Below, piece by piece: positions 3,361 to 34,670 of a stretch of 40,471 nt of DNA. Position 1 is the stretch's first letter; the number at the start of each line of letters is the position of its first letter. The notes below the pieces were generated by a model. The model saw only the letters and a program-made list of their open reading frames with translations, had not been told where the DNA came from and searched no databases. Made by a program: the position numbers and the translations under genes. This stretch comes from a virus (Duplodnaviria > Heunggongvirae > Uroviricota > Caudoviricetes): IMG/VR virus record IMGVR_UViG_2565956717_000010, positions 1-40,471 of that record; one strand, written 5' to 3'.

Positions 3361-3387
3361 CCCGCAAAATATTGCGGGCTTTTTTTT
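3361..3387 (+). terminator. Strong intrinsic terminator (plus-strand polarity) between lysis cassette and tailspike
   Basis: Stem CCCGCAA/TTGCGGG with 4-nt loop followed by T8 on the plus strand. On the minus strand the hairpin is preceded by an A-tract, so it is not a classical minus-strand terminator. Confidence 0.5.
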
Positions 3388-6300
3388 AACGTTCTTCCAG
3401 AGACTGAATCCGCTCTTTTATCTTATCCATTTCTCTGCGCTGCCATGCTGCCTCGATATAGAATAAGAGATCAGGTCTGACCCCCCATCTAGATCCTGCT
3501 GGCGTTATTTCAACGCGCTCAATGATGTCTTCCATTACCATCACTGGATTATCATCCTCATCAACAATAATGCTCCCGTCATTATCAGTCAGCGGCATTT
3601 CCCTTTGGCCAGTAATGACGTCATCATATACTGCGGGATAATCGTCATAGCAAAGAAACGCATAGCGGCATGTTGTGCTTTCTTCTTCCATGAGTCCGTG
3701 AGAAATAAGAACATCACGAAGTTGCTGCGCGATTACACCATGATGTATCCTCGCCCCTTCTTCCCCCTTTATAGCGACAGCGTTCAGCCATTTATAAGCG
3801 ATATACCTGACGTCACCCCAGGCATCCAGCAATGCTTCGTCAGGAGAGACCGGCTCTGTCTTTAATGTTCCGTCACTGGTAACCACAGGATTGGAGCCAA
3901 GATAAACTGTCGAGAACCTGTTTCCCGGACCACCAAGAGCATTTACATTATCAAGATAAGGTTTAACATCTCCGTTCTCAAAAAGATGTTCGAGTGCGTT
4001 ATATACCGCGCGACGTGGAGTACTGCTTCCGGAACCATGCAACGTTATCATTGCACCATCTGCTGAAGACGTTGTTTCACCGCCGCTAACGATTAATCTC
4101 TGAGCGGTAACATCATCAGACGGTACTTTCTTCGCAATAATGGCGTAATTACCCTCAAGTTTGACTTCCGCGCGAACTTGTCCTGATGTACCTGCATGGA
4201 CAGTCAGTGACTGGACGGCAACATCATCTGTGAAATCAACGGGTACAGGAACCGTCCTCACGCCTGACGTCGACATAAAAGTAGGAAGCGTTCTGTTAGG
4301 AGTGGCTCCGTAGACAAAATCCCTTGAAACAAATTCTTCCTGTTTAATTTTCACCCTGAAACAATACAAATCAGCCGGGTGACCATCGTGAACATAAGGA
4401 TATTTTCTGTTGTTATCCCCTATGCTCCATGGGTTTAGAAAGTCTTCCCCACCGAAAATGTAGTACAGCCAGTTGTCTTTGATACAAACTGAACCAACAC
4501 CAACCGCAGAGTTAACTATTCCGCCCTGATAAATCTGATCAGTAACATTAACCCACTCTACATTATCCAGACTCCACTCATTGACGTTAACTCTGGTCAT
4601 AAATGTTCTTGGATAATTTCCTGCATAACGGTTATCAGGTTCTCCTCCTTCCCACTCACCAAATGCGCGCTCACTGCCAAAAATAATCAGCTCATCGCCA
4701 ACTTTGGCAAAAGGAAGGTTTGAGTGATGAACATTATTTGGGAAGCGAAGAGAATTCCATGATGTACCTAAATCAGAGCTTCTGTGCAATGAACTACCGG
4801 GTTGAGTACTTAATGTCCCCCTGGTCGTCAGATACAGAATGCCATCATAATATTTTACACATGGCTCAGATGCATTCGCCTCATATTCTGCAGGTATGCG
4901 TCTGCGAACAAAGCTACCAGGAGAACCGAAAGCATCAGAGAAATAGAGTATCCCAAGCTCGCGTGGACCAATATCACCATTATGGTAGCCAACAGCAAAA
5001 CTGTTATCGCTAATCGTCGCAAAACTGTGAATCTCAGTAACAGGAGTGCTTCCGTCAACAAAAGAAGGAATAGTTCCAAGACTGGTTTTTCTCCATGGTG
5101 ACGAGTGAAATGATGTACCAAAACTCCAGTATCTACCCTCGTTATTCTGATCCACATCCTGGGTATTTTGCGTCGTAACTGTAAAAGTATTTTTATCAAT
5201 AACAGTAGTCACCGTCATATTCCCGGTAACACCTGTAACACCAGAGTTTGAGAAGTTGACAAAATCACCAGCAAATAATCCGTGATCAGTAATGCGAATA
5301 TAAGCGACTTGCTGATTTGCTGCTTTCGTTATACCACCATAAACGCGAAGGCTGCGACTCATTGGGCGATCCCACAACTCTGCAACCTGCAGTTTATTTC
5401 CGCTCACGGTCCGCGTCTCAATTACAGCAAAAAGGCGATTTCTGACAACCCCCATACTCATGCAGTGATAGTTAACTGTGGGATAGTTTTCATGTAAATC
5501 TGTAAGCCATTCCGGCGTTGTCCAGGTCTTCCCGTCATCTCCTGAGCGAACCCATGCAACATGGAGGTTATTTACACCATGGCGGTCTCCAGCCATAAAA
5601 GGCGCATAGATGACATTGTCATATACAAACGTTTTATCCTGCGTCCAGGCGTTGTACCACGGTGTATCTGTAATTTTAAATAACTCTCCCTGGATAAAAT
5701 CTTCAGAAGCATAAAAAAGAGGCTGGCCCGGTATTCTCTCAAATAAAAAACGAGCATTTTTAAATCGACTGACATCCGGAAGAGTTGATACTTTAAAAGT
5801 AAGCCCTAATCCGTCAATTCTATAACCTGGAGATGAGGCTTCAAGGCACGCGCTTATTGCAGTGGAATCGTCATTTATACCATCACCAACAGCTCCAAAA
5901 TCTTTGGGGCTAATAGCATCACGCATTTTATCCTGGAACGTTCGGTACACAGCCCCAGAACCATACTGAATAAACCAACCAAAACCACCAACAACCCCGG
6001 CGATTGCAGCATCGACATAATTACGCATTGAGCGATTATTTACAGCGTCCTGCTCAAATGATGGATCTGCAAGGTTAGAAATTTTGTTTTGCTTTGCATC
6101 GTAATATTTTGCAAGCAAAGATGGTTTCATCAATGCACGTCTGAACCACCCAAAACATTGCTGGATCAGCATCGTCAGGTAGTCAAAGGCATCTTCATGC
6201 ACTTCGGGGAAAAATTTTCCCTGATTGCGAAGGTCTGTCTCCTGCACTACATCAAGCACACGATCTATCGTAATTCGCCATCCAGTAGCAAGCGGAGACG

Positions 6301-6505
6301 GAAGAACCACAGAACCGCCACTATAAGTGCCCGCCCCAGTTACCGTATAACCGGTATCCAGAACCAATTCTGTTACGTTTCCGTTCAGGTCAGACACCTG
6401 AACAACCAGGTCTGATTTTCTGAAAATTCGAAAAGTATACGGAAACGATGTCGTAACGCCGTTACCGGTGTATTCGTTGTGGTCAACTTCGGTTGAGACC
6501 GTCAT
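3386..6505 (-). CDS. Tailspike with T7 gp17-like N-terminal adaptor, sialidase-fold (endosialidase-like) domain and C-terminal intramolecular chaperone domain
   Basis: Two Asp-box motifs (SGDDGKTW, SSDLGTSW); strong resemblance, from memory, to the K1F endosialidase catalytic region (GELFKITDTP, NYHCMSMGV); C-terminal S74-like domain with SDGTLK cleavage-type motif; N-terminus EYTGNGVTTSFPYTF resembles T7-type fibre adaptors. Confidence 0.8.
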   Translation of the reverse strand: MTVSTEVDHNEYTGNGVTTSFPYTFRIFRKSDLVVQVSDLNGNVTELVLDTGYTVTGAGTYSGGSVVLPSPLATGWRITIDRVLDVVQETDLRNQGKFFPEVHEDAFDYLTMLIQQCFGWFRRALMKPSLLAKYYDAKQNKISNLADPSFEQDAVNNRSMRNYVDAAIAGVVGGFGWFIQYGSGAVYRTFQDKMRDAISPKDFGAVGDGINDDSTAISACLEASSPGYRIDGLGLTFKVSTLPDVSRFKNARFLFERIPGQPLFYASEDFIQGELFKITDTPWYNAWTQDKTFVYDNVIYAPFMAGDRHGVNNLHVAWVRSGDDGKTWTTPEWLTDLHENYPTVNYHCMSMGVVRNRLFAVIETRTVSGNKLQVAELWDRPMSRSLRVYGGITKAANQQVAYIRITDHGLFAGDFVNFSNSGVTGVTGNMTVTTVIDKNTFTVTTQNTQDVDQNNEGRYWSFGTSFHSSPWRKTSLGTIPSFVDGSTPVTEIHSFATISDNSFAVGYHNGDIGPRELGILYFSDAFGSPGSFVRRRIPAEYEANASEPCVKYYDGILYLTTRGTLSTQPGSSLHRSSDLGTSWNSLRFPNNVHHSNLPFAKVGDELIIFGSERAFGEWEGGEPDNRYAGNYPRTFMTRVNVNEWSLDNVEWVNVTDQIYQGGIVNSAVGVGSVCIKDNWLYYIFGGEDFLNPWSIGDNNRKYPYVHDGHPADLYCFRVKIKQEEFVSRDFVYGATPNRTLPTFMSTSGVRTVPVPVDFTDDVAVQSLTVHAGTSGQVRAEVKLEGNYAIIAKKVPSDDVTAQRLIVSGGETTSSADGAMITLHGSGSSTPRRAVYNALEHLFENGDVKPYLDNVNALGGPGNRFSTVYLGSNPVVTSDGTLKTEPVSPDEALLDAWGDVRYIAYKWLNAVAIKGEEGARIHHGVIAQQLRDVLISHGLMEEESTTCRYAFLCYDDYPAVYDDVITGQREMPLTDNDGSIIVDEDDNPVMVMEDIIERVEITPAGSRWGVRPDLLFYIEAAWQRREMDKIKERIQSLEER

Positions 6506-6609: not shown

Positions 6610-6624
6610 TTACCTTTCAGGTAA
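6610..6624. promoter_or_regulatory. Operator-like palindrome TTACC-N5-GGTAA (site 1)
   Basis: Perfect inverted repeat TTACCtttcaGGTAA flanked A..T; in divergent region between tailspike start and the LexA-box gene. Confidence 0.45.
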
Positions 6625-6663: not shown

Positions 6664-6679
6664 CTGTATAAATATACAG
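6664..6679. promoter_or_regulatory. LexA (SOS) box
   Basis: CTGTATAAATATACAG is a perfect CTGT-N8-ACAG palindrome with AT-rich centre, 22 bp upstream of ATG 6701; overlaps -10-like TATAAA. Only such box found in the window. Confidence 0.7.
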
Positions 6680-6700: not shown

Positions 6701-6958
6701 ATGCAGCAGTATCACTATCCACTGGAAGACGGATTTACCGAAAGGATTCACACGCCGGGAGGCGTCAGGTCACTGGTGGAGGGATCGCACTTGATGAAAT
6801 TACTCCGGGATCTCGATAAGGATGGATTTAATGTCGATGGCCCACTTGCCGAACTGACTGCACTGATTAACTACGTCACCAGCTCACAGATGTCTATGCA
6901 GGATCTGCAAACACATCTCGACTATTGTGCCGAACAATTACGAAAGCAAACCAGATAA
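6701..6958 (+). CDS. Small protein homologous to the C-terminal domain of the adjacent antirepressor (SOS-controlled antirepressor candidate)
   Basis: 85 aa from ATG 6701 with GGAG RBS; C-terminal ~60 aa align with the C-terminus of the 7276-7926 product (GVRSLVEGSHLMKLLRDL...DLQTHLDY vs GVLGLTENSLLMNLLNQL...DIQTHAEY). Confidence 0.6.
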   Translation: MQQYHYPLEDGFTERIHTPGGVRSLVEGSHLMKLLRDLDKDGFNVDGPLAELTALINYVTSSQMSMQDLQTHLDYCAEQLRKQTR

Positions 6959-6989
6959 GGTTTGCAATTACCAAGTGGAGTGCTTATAT

Positions 6990-7004
6990 TTACCTTTGCG
7001 GTAA
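6990..7004. promoter_or_regulatory. Operator-like palindrome TTACC-N5-GGTAA (site 2)
   Basis: TTACCtttgcGGTAA, 32 bp after the stop of the small antirepressor-like gene. Confidence 0.4.
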
Positions 7005-7095
7005 ATTTACATCGCACTCCTCTTGTGCCATAGTAATCGGGCACTGGCAAAATCCAGTGCCGGGATTGGTCTCCCGGATTACTAAGTGGCGCATA

Positions 7096-7117
7096 CCACG
7101 CCAGACGTGGTTTTTTT
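7096..7117 (+). terminator. Intrinsic terminator after small antirepressor-like gene
   Basis: Stem CCACG/CGTGG with 5-nt loop followed by T7. Confidence 0.5.
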
Positions 7118-7275
7118 ATGCGTATAGCACAGTCATGCCAGAATTATGGTGGGCTGAATGGGGGTCCGAAAGGACGCCGGTACCACTTAGGCCGGTAAGA
7201 CCAACTCCGTTCAGTTCACCACCATCTGATTGGTCTCAGCGGTGGTGATGTAATTCGCTAAGTGGAGACGCCATA

Positions 7276-7926
7276 ATGAACGCTCAACTCATCCCCGTAT
7301 TCAACGGCACTATATCCAACGAAACCGCTCTTCTCGTTAATGCCCGTGATTTACACACTTTCCTCGATGTGGGTAAGCGATTTGCTTCGTGGATTGTCGA
7401 ACGAATTTCTGAATATGGTTTCGTTGAAAATCAAGACTTTATGATTATTTCCCAAGTTCGGGAAAAAATAGGCAGAGGCCGTCCTGCAAAAGACTACCAC
7501 CTCACCCTCGATACAGCCAAAGAGCTGGCGATGGTCGAGCGTAACGAAAAAGGTCGTCAGGTACGACGCTACTTCATTGAATGCGAGAAACGTTTAAGAC
7601 AACAAGAAACAAAAGTGGAGAAGGTCTTGTCAGGCTTCATGCCCGCCATTATGGAGGCGATCAAGCTGGAAGACAAAAAAGAATACAGTGCCCCACTGAA
7701 GCCCGGCTACCGTAGCCTGATTCATTCGCCGTCTGGTGTTCTCGGCCTGACGGAGAACTCACTGCTGATGAATCTGCTGAACCAGTTACAGGACGACGGG
7801 CACGACGTATCGGGCGCGGCGGCGGAGCTGACCACCATGTTCTGCTACATCGTCGGTGTGAGCAAATGCCTGCGTGATATCCAGACCCACGCGGAGTACA
7901 TCAACGACAAGGCAGGGTTCTTCTGA
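7276..7926 (+). CDS. Antirepressor, AntA-type N-terminal domain
   Basis: N-terminal LIPVFNGT...LVNARDLHTFLDVGKRFASWIVERISEYGFVENQDF matches the AntA/AntB antirepressor pattern as I remember it; GGAG RBS; C-terminal domain shared with 6701-6958. Confidence 0.7.
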   Translation: MNAQLIPVFNGTISNETALLVNARDLHTFLDVGKRFASWIVERISEYGFVENQDFMIISQVREKIGRGRPAKDYHLTLDTAKELAMVERNEKGRQVRRYFIECEKRLRQQETKVEKVLSGFMPAIMEAIKLEDKKEYSAPLKPGYRSLIHSPSGVLGLTENSLLMNLLNQLQDDGHDVSGAAAELTTMFCYIVGVSKCLRDIQTHAEYINDKAGFF

Positions 7927-7992: not shown

Positions 7993-8007
7993 TTACCTTA
8001 AAGGTAA
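7993..8007. promoter_or_regulatory. Operator-like palindrome TTACC-N5-GGTAA (site 3)
   Basis: TTACCttaaaGGTAA, 26 bp upstream of ATG 8034; overlaps a second palindrome GTAAACC-atg-GGTTTAC (8004-8020). Confidence 0.45.
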
Positions 8008-8033
8008 ACCATGGGTTTACATGAGGAGGAGAT

Positions 8034-8243
8034 ATGGGATTTTGGTTCGCTCGTACAAAAACGAGGGATAATGCACCCAGCCCTCAGGCAAAAAATGCAG
8101 AAGTTCCGGCGTCAGCGCAGGTTAACAAGCGTGGTGGAGTATATATCTCATCACAGCAAATTTCTGAGCTTCCTGAGGTTAAGGAGATGCGTCGTCTCGC
8201 TGCTGCAATTGTTAAACAGGATCTTGCCACTGTAAGGAAATAG
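8034..8243 (+). CDS. Hypothetical small protein, first gene of cargo operon
   Basis: 69 aa; GAGGAGGAG RBS immediately upstream; stop overlaps the next start (TAGTG). A competing 74-aa ORF in another frame (8011-8235) lacks an RBS. Confidence 0.4.
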   Translation: MGFWFARTKTRDNAPSPQAKNAEVPASAQVNKRGGVYISSQQISELPEVKEMRRLAAAIVKQDLATVRK

Positions 8244-9109
8244 TGTTGTTAGCTCTTCTAATTATCCCCATTCTGGTTAGTGGTTATATTATGATAACCG
8301 CTAACCAGTATCATTATTTCCGTTTATACCGACATGAAGGCCAGCTTCTTTATATGAAAGTAGCTGCATTAGGTACATATTGCCTTGTTGCATCAGTAAT
8401 AATTGCAGCCGCTATAAAATATAAATGGCCTGATTTTCACCTAGTTCACGATATGGTGGAAACTTTTAATGTAACATCAAAACCAGAAACAGATAGAATT
8501 TACATGTGGCTGCTTCTTCTCTCAGCCACATCCATTTGCTTCTCTTTGTGTTATGTGTCTGTTGTGTGGGTGAAAGATTTTCTTCTTGGTTGTTTTTATA
8601 AACGTGATATTTACGAGCAAAAAACAGAGGCAATGAAGGCCAGAGTACTGCGAAAAACTTACTCGCAAGGTTCTTTAGACTTACTATTGCTTGATGCTAT
8701 TGAATCGGATCCTAAACGACCAATGTTGATTACTTTATCATCAAACAAAGTGTATGTTGGAATAATAAATGGTTCTGGTGAACCAACGGAAAATCAGGGT
8801 CCGCATCAGCACATATCTTTTGTTCCTTTAATGTCAGGATACAGGAACAAAGAAAACTTATCTGTCACATTCACTAATGCTTATCCAGGAGAAATACAGG
8901 TCAAGCGGACTGCAGCAATAAGAGGAATTAGCAGAAAGAAAGTGCTAGGACTTGAGATCATGGTGTCTATTGACGAAATAAGTTATATATCATGGTTTGA
9001 TTTTGAAGTATATAAAGCAACAAATAACAAAGTAGAATCCAGGGGGCACGTTATTCGTGTTACCAAAAATGGAAGAAATATATATCAAAGAAATAGCAAA
9101 AAAGAATAG
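8243..9109 (+). CDS. Hypothetical membrane protein (three N-terminal TM helices plus ~170-aa soluble domain), AT-rich cargo
   Basis: 288 aa; AAGGA RBS; three hydrophobic segments in first ~110 aa; markedly AT-rich codon usage compared with flanking structural genes; terminator directly after stop. Confidence 0.6.
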   Translation: MLLALLIIPILVSGYIMITANQYHYFRLYRHEGQLLYMKVAALGTYCLVASVIIAAAIKYKWPDFHLVHDMVETFNVTSKPETDRIYMWLLLLSATSICFSLCYVSVVWVKDFLLGCFYKRDIYEQKTEAMKARVLRKTYSQGSLDLLLLDAIESDPKRPMLITLSSNKVYVGIINGSGEPTENQGPHQHISFVPLMSGYRNKENLSVTFTNAYPGEIQVKRTAAIRGISRKKVLGLEIMVSIDEISYISWFDFEVYKATNNKVESRGHVIRVTKNGRNIYQRNSKKE

Positions 9110-26082: not shown

Positions 26083-26159
26083 GTGGCATTAGCTCAGTTG
26101 GACAGAGCAACCGCCTTCTAAGCGGTTGGTCGCAGGTTCGAATCCTGCATGCCACGCCA
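26083..26159 (+). tRNA. tRNA-Arg (anticodon UCU)
   Basis: 77 nt, hand-folded cloverleaf: acceptor GTGGCAT/ATGCCAC, D-stem GCTC/GAGC, anticodon stem ACCGC/GCGGT with loop CTTCTAA, T-arm GCAGG-TTCGAAT-CCTGC, discriminator G, encoded CCA. Acceptor stem differs from the host argU I remember. Confidence 0.85.
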
Positions 26160-26244: not shown

Positions 26245-26322
26245 ACAGCAGGACGCCATTGCGATGACTTCATGCTGTAAACCAGTACAGCCACGGAAGG
26301 CATAACTCATTGCTTCCAGTTC

Positions 26323-34085: not shown

Positions 34086-34670
34086 ATGAAAAGTATCCAG
34101 GACGTCCGCAGGCAAAATCTCAACGACTTGATCGACCGTGAATTCAATGGTGTTCAGACGCGGATGGCAGAAAAACTTGGAACTCAGGCAAATCTGGTAA
34201 ACCGCTGGGCTCTTGGCAAGAAGGTTATCGGCGACCAGGTTGCGCGAAAAATTGAAGCTGCCGCCAATAAACCCCGTAACTGGCTTGATATCGATCGCTC
34301 GCTTTCTCAGGAAGGTTTTCAGCCTGTCGGCCCAAGCGACATTGGCCAGCTGGCGGCTCACAACCTGGAACGCTGGATGAGCGAAAGCCGCGACCTTTCA
34401 ACACAGGGAAAACTTCACCGCGCATCCGGCGTCGCCCAGGTGACAATCAGCCGCCTGTTAAACAATGAGGTCAGCGTTTCCATTTCCACCCTGGAGAATG
34501 TTGCATCCGCATTCGGGCGTCACGGCTATGAATTACTGATTCACCCGCACGACCCTGCGACCATCAACTATGACCGCTCGCGCTACGCATTGTTACCCGA
34601 AACCGAGAAAGCAAAGATCGAAAGTTACATTGAATTTGTCATCAACCAGAACGAAAAAAACAAACAATAA
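34086..34670 (+). CDS. Double-HTH XRE-type regulator, candidate lysogeny repressor without autocleavage domain
   Basis: Two HTH-like segments (GVQTRMAEKLGTQANLVNRWALG and GVAQVTISRLLNNEVSVSISTLENVASAF); no S24 peptidase motifs; divergent from Cro-like gene across three palindromes; own terminator. Confidence 0.55.
   Translation: MKSIQDVRRQNLNDLIDREFNGVQTRMAEKLGTQANLVNRWALGKKVIGDQVARKIEAAANKPRNWLDIDRSLSQEGFQPVGPSDIGQLAAHNLERWMSESRDLSTQGKLHRASGVAQVTISRLLNNEVSVSISTLENVASAFGRHGYELLIHPHDPATINYDRSRYALLPETEKAKIESYIEFVINQNEKNKQ

Follow-up and report, generated by a model that had tools for sequence, protein, structure and literature searches.

C4-type antisense RNAs are excised from the transcript of their operon, with RNase P acting at the 5' end, and repress Ant in trans; in phage P1, the translational block causes Rho-dependent termination. 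The CI RNA of P4 (seqA/seqC) and the immA RNA of N15 are processed from the leader of the operon that is controlled and have targets both up- and downstream, and these two systems, which are cited in PMC4825925 and PMC4488713, act by premature transcription termination. Repression by P1 c4 was reportedly worked out by Citron and Schuster in 1990, Biere et al. in 1992 and Hartmann et al. in 1995. The curated P1 record gives the order Oc4, P2c4 and P1c4, a1, b1, C4 RNA, a2, b2, icd and ant. Silencing of Ant by C4 in the manner of P1, including silencing in trans, has been summarized together with the dependence of P1/P7 heteroimmunity on the sequence specificity of the a and b sites (PMC12197685).

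A separate literature concerns the isrK - orf45/STnc1160 - anrP region of Gifsy-1. In the published model, IsrK is an activator that works through translation of orf45, and no C4-type repressor RNA takes part. Translation of anrP rises more than 100-fold when IsrK is supplied in trans, an effect that needs pairing of G28/G31 with C162/C159 (PMC4825925), and lysogens express both IsrK and STnc1160 at high levels (PMC7067206). In the APSE phages of Hamiltonella defensa, isrK, C4 and a'/b' are annotated directly upstream of a Bro-N antirepressor-type gene, and isrK was left unconnected with the a1/b1 sites by the authors (PMC7313666).

The window analyzed here is the whole stretch of 40,471 nucleotides held in IMG/VR record IMGVR_UViG_2565956717_000010, which represents a Uetakevirus (epsilon15/phiV10-like) genome. 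The closest phage record, phiv142-3, is 99.6% identical over 7030-7290. An 85-aa ORF and a 216-aa ORF, both encoding antirepressors, are separated by a spacer of 317 bp, and the analysis of this spacer indicates that it is very probably a P1 immI-type antisense-RNA immunity cassette placed before the second antirepressor gene.

Features of the spacer

An Rfam scan of the whole window at gathering thresholds returned three matches: isrK and C4 RNAs in the spacer, and a tRNA elsewhere. The coordinates of the features are collected in Table 1. A preliminary description, made from the sequence of the window, had listed repeats, an inverted copy, a hairpin, a terminator and a palindrome in the spacer, and all were present on re-examination. 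GATTGGTCTC occurs in direct copies at 7064 and 7228, and CTAAGTGG in direct copies at 7082 and 7258; CCACTTAG at 7183 is its inverted form. The stem at 7095-7111 resembles a terminator and leads into a T run to 7117, and the palindrome TTACCTTTGCGGTAA spans 6990-7004. Most of the coordinates had been exact, the exceptions being the second CTAAGTGG, placed at 7257, and the inverted copy, placed at 7184. The hairpin GCACTGG-caaaat-CCAGTGC (7041-7060) had been given an 8-bp stem; it has 7 bp as quoted and 8 bp only if G7040-C7061 is counted.

The 10-mer repeat corresponds in sequence to the 7-nt a site described below plus conserved flanking bases. In 2000 dinucleotide-preserving shuffles of the 317-bp spacer, a 10-mer direct repeat arose in 83, and an 8-mer present twice in direct and once in inverted orientation arose in 13. 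Neither CTAAGTGG nor its complement was found outside the spacer in the 40-kb window. The Rfam matches, together with the covariation observed in relatives, are a stronger argument against chance than the shuffles.

Table 1. Features of the spacer and of its flanks in the window
Feature	Position	Strand	Evidence or remark
TTACC-N5-GGTAA palindrome, putative repressor operator	6610-6624		Upstream of the SOS promoter; conserved in relatives including SPC32H
LexA box CTGTATAAATATACAG	6664-6679		Precedes small ant
Small antirepressor Ant, 85 aa, SPC32H type	6701-6958	+	PDB 5d50 chain E "Anti-repressor protein", E 4e-47; phrog_450
TTACC-N5-GGTAA operator-like palindrome	6990-7004		Abuts -35 of the leader promoter
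Sigma-70 promoter TTTACA, 17 nt, TGcCATAGT (extended -10)	7006-7034	+	Consensus match; predicted start near 7041
IsrK-type leader RNA (= c4-a1b1 element)	7041-7117	+	Rfam isrK RF01394, 67.7 bits vs gathering 50
Leader hairpin 1	7041-7060	+	Covaries in relatives
Leader hairpin 2	7061-7076	+	a1 TTGGTCT (7066-7072) in loop
b1 CTAAGTGG	7082-7089	+	Single-stranded in leader RNA
Intrinsic terminator	7095-7117	+	Found independently of Rfam
C4-type antisense RNA	7142-7226	+	Rfam RF01695, 61.2 bits vs gathering 45, full model length
b' CCACTTAG	7183-7190	+	C4 hairpin loop
a' AGACCAA	7198-7204	+	C4 internal (3') bulge
Alternative hairpin	7216-7248	+	C4 3' strand TCACCACC pairs with GGTGGTGA (7241-7248)
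a2 TTGGTCT	7230-7236	+	Loop of alternative hairpin
b2 CTAAGTGG	7258-7265	+	Overlaps ant Shine-Dalgarno GGAG (7264-7267)
Antirepressor Ant, 216 aa	7276-7926	+	Pfam AntA N-terminal, E 7e-28; phrog_377 "anti-repressor Ant"

IsrK-type leader, promoter and putative operator

In Uetakevirus relatives the palindrome at 6990-7004 retains its half-sites, with the central 5 nt varying, and in P1 the C1 operator Oc4 occupies the analogous position. The pattern TTACC-N5-GGTAA occurs at 12 sites in the window versus 0.76 expected. A search of the window for the same half-sites at N7 returned no sites, the correct spacing being N5. Pairs of the palindromes flank the gene of a 194-aa HTH protein (34086-34670), which matches phage repressor families and in which no peptidase domain was detected. 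By analogy with Oc4 of P1, we infer that these palindromes are putative operators of the prophage repressor.

The predicted sigma-70 promoter ends 7 nt before the 5' end of isrK. Every relative has a -35/-10 pair ending at this same distance from isrK, and in the P1 record the promoter in that register is annotated as P1c4, formerly P51b. The preliminary description had rightly seen a regulatory platform before the full-length antirepressor, where two RNA genes, a promoter and pairing sites are located. It overlooked the two RNA genes (isrK-type and C4-type) as well as the conserved promoter with its operator. Because the spacer has this promoter and operator of its own, it is not merely a filter for read-through from the SOS promoter, as had been proposed.

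Above the gathering score of the isrK covariance model, the leader RNA comprises two 5' hairpins and a Rho-independent terminator, with its own putative promoter at the first hairpin. In a permissive scan, the Rfam family c4-a1b1 (RF03163, "a1, b1 targets of C4 antisense RNA") matched 7028-7080 with 39.9 bits, below the gathering threshold of 46.7, in an interval overlapping hairpins 1 and 2 of the isrK match. The a1/b1 leader of P1 passes the c4-a1b1 model (51 bits) and is weak for isrK (35 bits), whereas the leader of the window has a strong canonical terminator and the higher isrK score given in Table 1. Since the window passes isrK and the P1 leader passes c4-a1b1, the two Rfam families therefore describe one element, the leader of c4-type operons.

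C4-type RNA and its targets

The C4-type RNA has a minimum-free-energy fold of -41.2 kcal/mol in which b' and a' are unpaired. The fold has the architecture of the family, with a long basal stem around two hairpins, of which the second exposes b' in its loop, and with a' in the 3' bulge; 13 of its 27 pairs show compensatory changes (19-20 sequences). By analogy with the annotated P1 RNA, the mature form probably spans 7148-7223, or about 76 nt. The a' and b' segments are perfect complements of a2 (7 nt at 7230) and b2 (8 nt at 7258), the latter lying 10 nt before the ant ATG (7276) with no ORF between, and a second copy of the targets, a1 and b1, is located upstream of the C4 RNA at 7066-7072 and 7082-7089. 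Furthermore, GGTGGTGA, the pairing partner of the basal stem's 3' strand in C4, is conserved, and the inner stem flanking a2 covaries.

In the minimum-free-energy structure predicted for 7041-7290, the a1/b1 region is paired in cis with a'/b', which matches "structure A", the silent form of the transcript in Gifsy-1 (PMC4825925). Duplex energies computed with flanks gave no separation between cognate and foreign targets of the C4 loops, the flanking stems having found other partners. Exact complement matches were used instead because the duplex energies failed to discriminate.

Open reading frames within the spacer were also examined. A 107-aa ORF with a TTG start (6925-7248) had been regarded in the preliminary description as probably not coding, and rightly: among relatives, no ORF there keeps its frame or its length. 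A 37-aa ORF (7135-7248) had no match in Pfam and was rejected as a gene: it has no Shine-Dalgarno sequence, is unconserved and stops 28 nt before the ant ATG. An AUG is conserved at C4 position 5, corresponding to 7146 here, and by our own numbering it would be the first AUG of Gifsy-1 orf45. The ORF that it opens in the window is 3 codons long (MVG-stop). In relatives, the ORFs from the homologous AUG are 8-36 codons long or fused to the next gene, with no frame conserved, and an orf45-type ORF was rejected as coding here given its 3 codons and its unconserved length and frame.

Conservation of base pairing among related loci

The comparison set consisted of 19 related loci plus P1, the loci originating from E. 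coli, Enterobacter, Klebsiella, Hafnia, Yersinia and Salmonella phages, Stx phages and the APSE phages of Hamiltonella. C4 was present in all 19 relatives, and isrK lay approximately 24 nt upstream on the same strand in 18 of them; in the remaining one, SW-37, the leader falls below the isrK threshold and the a1 site is present. Every annotated relative record has an antirepressor-type gene downstream.

Each C4 was compared with its own flanks in an unbiased search for complementary stretches of 6 nt or more. All complements found map to the same two C4 segments. Every locus has the a-site heptamer once in the leader and once downstream, and most have a b segment of 7-10 nt in both places; an exact b match of at least 6 nt was absent on one or both sides in six loci. 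Six a types were recovered (TTGGTCT, TTGGCGT, TTGAGAC, TTGGAAC, TTGACCT and TTGACAG), each found in both a1 and a2 and complementary to a'. The b site comprises about a dozen types, and its copies change together wherever they are matched. In the window, an a site of the Tyrion type occurs with a b site of the HEMP4 type, and phiV10 has the a/b type TTGGCGT / CTAAAAGG. In the 16 relatives with a matching b2, a reading of the flanks places this site abutting or overlapping a purine-rich stretch or the downstream start codon.

In the 19-sequence alignment, a1 and a' were 96.2% paired, versus 24-49% in controls slid by 1-3 columns, and a' and a2 were 96.1% paired, with compensatory changes at 4 of 7 pairs in each case. 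These formal counts were limited to the a sites because the b1, b' and b2 segments are variable and were not aligned correctly by MAFFT. The concerted change of the copies and of the antisense RNA is, on this comparative reading of the sequences, selection for base pairing and not the remnant of a duplication. The duplication scar that the preliminary description had offered as one account of the repeats is at odds with P1 and the 19 relatives, which have unrelated neighbours and keep the arrangement at matching spacings while the copies change in concert.

Comparison with P1, Gifsy-1 and APSE

The P1/P7 immI region (c4 - icd - ant1/ant2) shares with the window a repressor operator, a constitutive promoter, a1, b1, a C4 RNA with a'/b', a2, b2 and a regulated gene, in addition to the C4 fold, the position of b2 over a ribosome-binding site and the antirepressor payload. 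Start-to-start spacings are 14 nt (a1-b1) and 29 nt (a2-b2) in P1, and 16 and 28 nt in the window. In P1 the targeted ribosome-binding site is that of the small, ant-coupled ORF icd, whereas b2 of the window lies directly on the Shine-Dalgarno sequence of ant. The absence here of a small coupling ORF with the target ribosome-binding site, such as P1 icd, was counted against the P1-type explanation; icd is a feature of the P1 operon and not of the RNA family. The antirepressor of the window (AntA plus SPC32H-Ant domains) is unrelated to the P1 antirepressor protein, and the window belongs to an integrating podovirus whereas P1 is a plasmid prophage.

Gifsy-1 resembles the window in having an isrK RNA with its own promoter and a leaky terminator, then a stable processed RNA followed by an antirepressor gene, with the leader complementary to the downstream RNA (PMC4825925). 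It differs in its published model, with IsrK as activator through orf45 and no C4-type repressor. By the numbering of the isrK model, in our own reading, G28/G31 and C162/C159 of Gifsy-1 would fall in a1 and a', respectively. In the APSE phages, the a and b sites covary as they do here; their a/b sequences and payload are different, and no LexA-controlled small ant lies upstream.

Proposed mechanism and alternatives

The sequence analysis establishes to which families the two RNAs belong, how they fold, where the promoter lies, that the pairing segments are complementary and covary, and that no ORF is conserved. C4 processing, the translational block and the decoy or activator role of the short leader RNA are proposed here by analogy with P1 and Gifsy-1. 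The sigma-70 promoter would start transcription near 7041, with the abutting operator serving the prophage repressor. Most transcripts would end at the terminator, giving an IsrK-type RNA of about 77 nt with a1 and b1, and read-through transcripts would carry the C4-type RNA, which by analogy with P1 would be cut from its precursor. Pairing of b' in the hairpin loop with b2, and of a' in the bulge with a2, would block translation of ant, and the untranslated ant mRNA would probably be exposed to premature termination. C4 would act in trans, so that the ant of an incoming phage with the same a/b specificity would be silenced too. The a1/b1 leader would be a target mimic: in cis it would sequester a'/b' of the unprocessed transcript, and as a free short RNA it would compete for C4, relieving repression. 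The simplest unifying view, drawn from the known systems, is that the short terminated leader RNA may act as a decoy for C4.

A possible alternative, which we nevertheless hold to be somewhat unlikely, is termination in the style of P4 and N15, whose likeness to the window is one of analogy only. C4 would pair with nascent a1/b1 (and a2/b2) and promote termination, whether Rho-dependent or at the terminator of IsrK, and Ant would be set mainly by the RNA that gets through and not by occlusion of the ribosome-binding site. The b1 site ends 5 nt before the terminator stem, and when the leader is folded by itself, G7088-C7092 is predicted to take part in a helix competing with this stem; in our own reading, C4 bound at b1 could therefore favour the terminator. 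C4 and c4-a1b1 are placed in one Rfam clan, and Hershko-Shalev et al. liken IsrK to P4 seqA and STnc1160 to CI RNA (PMC4825925). No match of a P4-specific Rfam model was reported for the spacer stretch at E up to 1. However, b2 lies on the ant Shine-Dalgarno sequence here and near the downstream gene start in most relatives, a position unneeded for pure termination. This alternative is also compatible with a translational block, and the two mechanisms are not exclusive.

The Gifsy-1 model taken literally, in which the long transcript is silent and short IsrK opens translation of orf45 that is coupled into ant, shares its RNA family and gene order with the window, is backed by genetic evidence in Salmonella (PMC4825925) and finds the conserved AUG in place at 7146. 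It is nonetheless improbable for this locus. The ORF from that AUG ends after MVG, its counterparts in relatives vary as described above, and the sole longer ORF, at 7135-7248, is in another frame, lacks a Shine-Dalgarno sequence and conservation, and stops 28 nt short of the ant ATG. With an orf45 equivalent of 3 codons, the model therefore does not transfer unchanged, and the orf45-coupling step cannot apply.

It is scarcely credible that the repeats are functionless remnants of a duplication of the antirepressor C-terminal domain: although the spacer does lie between two genes sharing a domain and about 4% of shuffles yield a 10-mer direct repeat by itself, the repeat system is found in P1, APSE, Stx and Yersinia phages without the paralogue pair, and the a/b copies stay identical to each other and complementary to the intervening RNA while their sequence changes.

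Antirepressor genes and the SOS context

The immunity cassette favoured here lies between two antirepressor genes that, as the preliminary description had it, are paralogous in part: the 85-aa protein is 40% identical to residues 135-212 of the 216-aa Ant (E 7e-16). Residues 135-211 of the latter also match PDB 5d50_E (E 9.5e-14), giving it a C-terminal domain like SPC32H Ant. The N15 payload includes AntA, the namesake of the Pfam domain in the 216-aa Ant. PADLOC and NCBIfam gave no matches for the small Ant or for the two genes downstream of ant. In the relative vB_EcoP_ZX5, overexpression of the antirepressor at this position drives lysis (PMC9782041).

The small Ant is 88% identical to the annotated ant product of SPC32H. 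The LexA box before it keeps CTGT-N8-ACAG, with a changed spacer, in phiV10, HEMP4, Tyrion, Phi05_1387B and SPC32H, and by these sequence features the 85-aa gene is recognizable as a LexA-controlled antirepressor of the SPC32H type. Kim and Ryu (J Virol 2013) reportedly found SPC32H ant to be under LexA repression and its product to inactivate Rep, a non-cleavable repressor. SPC32H resembles the window in having an operator palindrome and a LexA box before an 85-aa-type ant, but it has no isrK, C4 or second ant, and a GC-rich hairpin and a convergent gene directly follow its ant. As both the cassette and the second ant are missing from SPC32H, the cassette and its payload are therefore taken as an insertion in the E. 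coli/Klebsiella/Enterobacter branch. Absence of the repeats from a close relative with identical regulation had been named as a point that would tell against the preliminary account. SPC32H has no repeats, but it has no second ant either, and the objection is answered by the joint occurrence of the repeats and the second ant gene.

No intrinsic terminator was found on the + strand between 6958 and 7095, and SOS transcripts would on that account enter the leader; read-through from the LexA-controlled promoter is thus plausible. A speculative extension, which we consider doubtful, is that SOS-induced transcripts mostly end at 7117 and that the resulting a1/b1 decoy RNA titrates C4 and unlocks the second antirepressor. 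If true, the SOS-fed decoy would add to prophage induction a feed-forward step based on an RNA sponge. With its diverged copy (40% identity) of the Rep-binding domain, the second Ant might also be aimed at the repressor of a different, co-resident Uetakevirus.

Annotation status and implications

The module is an unannotated member of a well-known system, and its architecture is already known from the curated P1 record; Rfam has families for both RNAs, and the two are annotated side by side in APSE-7 (PMC7313666). Two local peculiarities can be read from the sequence: a coupling ORF is lacking, and the cassette follows an SOS-controlled paralogue from which no + strand terminator was found to separate it. 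Of 5426 complete E. coli genomes, 449 have the module, flanked by a tailspike gene and an antirepressor gene. The copy in IAI39 is 99.6% identical, and phiv142-3 is carried by E. coli DE142. Among the matches listed for E. coli genomes, only the ant CDS is annotated under the match, and the one RefSeq record inspected in full contains no PGAP RNA gene in the spacer. In the phiV10 record, a terminator is the sole feature marked in the spacer. Five phage records have a CDS overlapping both RNA genes, and one Klebsiella record has a CDS over C4. The vB_EcoP_ZX5 antirepressor study was not among the literature found to name both RNAs.

Recognizing the module corrects those records in which a CDS has been placed over the RNA genes. 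Furthermore, the a/b pair predicts which prophages are mutually immune to each other's antirepressors. P1 c4, known for a repressor RNA with a1/b1 and a2/b2 targets, and Gifsy-1 IsrK, known as an activator RNA, represent one architecture described in two literatures. The SOS promoter upstream of the cassette provides a testable link from DNA damage to an RNA-controlled second antirepressor.

Putative operators and adjacent genes

The palindrome TTACC-N5-GGTAA occurred 12 times in the window against 0.76 expected. Paired sites flank the gene for a 194-aa HTH repressor (34086-34670), and others precede genes of early or accessory type. These palindromes probably serve an SPC32H-type Rep as its operators, scattered in the manner of those in P1. 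The site at 7993 stands ahead of two genes of unknown function, for the products of which no Pfam or PADLOC match was found; these genes may form an accessory pair under repressor control. Elsewhere in the window, a second CTGT-N8-ACAG match, CTGTAAACCAGTACAG, lies at 26275-26290, approximately 120 nt downstream of a tRNA-Arg gene (anticodon TCT, 26083-26159).

Features of the window and of related phage loci (L-handles, extracted loci numbered in their own coordinates)
Feature	Location	Annotation
TTACC-N5-GGTAA, first half of window	6610, 6990, 7993	
TTACC-N5-GGTAA, rest of window	25746, 28544, 28562, 31623, 31685, 33968, 34016, 34728, 34790	
Gene, 69-aa product	within 7993-9109	phrog_5739
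Gene, 288-aa product	within 7993-9109	phrog_3630
SPC32H counterpart of small Ant	L022 1995-2255	
CDS over isrK and C4, Hafnia yong2		'Ash family protein'
CDS over isrK and C4, phiP27		L16
CDS over isrK and C4, 2H10		'putative antirepressor'
CDS over isrK and C4, Ayreon		'immunity region'
CDS over isrK and C4, 118970_sal3		
CDS over C4 only, Klebsiella ST512	minus strand	
CDSs overlapping RNA genes, six loci	L006 815-1012; L010 488-1171; L014 631-1290; L016 531-1076; L017 270-1106; L018 246-1388	

Origin and distribution of the cassette

The product of ORF 6701-6958 is an antirepressor of the type crystallised from SPC32H (PDB 5D50). Because SPC32H, unlike the window, is without the entire isrK-C4-ant2 cassette, the latter is an insertion in the Uetakeviruses of E. 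coli, Klebsiella and Enterobacter. Cassette-like sequences were present in 449 of 5426 complete E. coli genomes, at no more than three places per genome and nearly all chromosomal, with at least 99% identity to the cassette in 72 records. An endosialidase carrying a Peptidase_S74 chaperone domain forms the tailspike (3386-6505, minus strand), and K1-capsulated E. coli is therefore the probable target of this Uetakevirus.

In Salmonella phage SW-37 (L015, 780-862 and 1517-1559), C4 is present with isrJ further downstream, the gene order of Gifsy-1. Its leader, scoring below the isrK gathering score, has a different first hairpin and retains a1 (TTGGCGT). Five GenBank records carry a CDS overlapping both isrK and C4; these calls, and that in Klebsiella ST512, are probably over-extended or spurious.

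Repeat copies and immunity specificity

The b2/Shine-Dalgarno core, AAGTGGAG, has two extra copies in the window (6973-6980 and 7613-7620), the first forming an arm of an inverted repeat of 12 nt (6972-6983 and 7014-7025) on either side of the putative operator; both extra copies probably reflect chance. The specificity of the window (7066-7072/7082-7089) is mosaic: its a site is shared with Tyrion (L005) and Klebsiella ST512, and its b site with HEMP4 (L004). New immunity types may therefore arise by recombination within the cassette.
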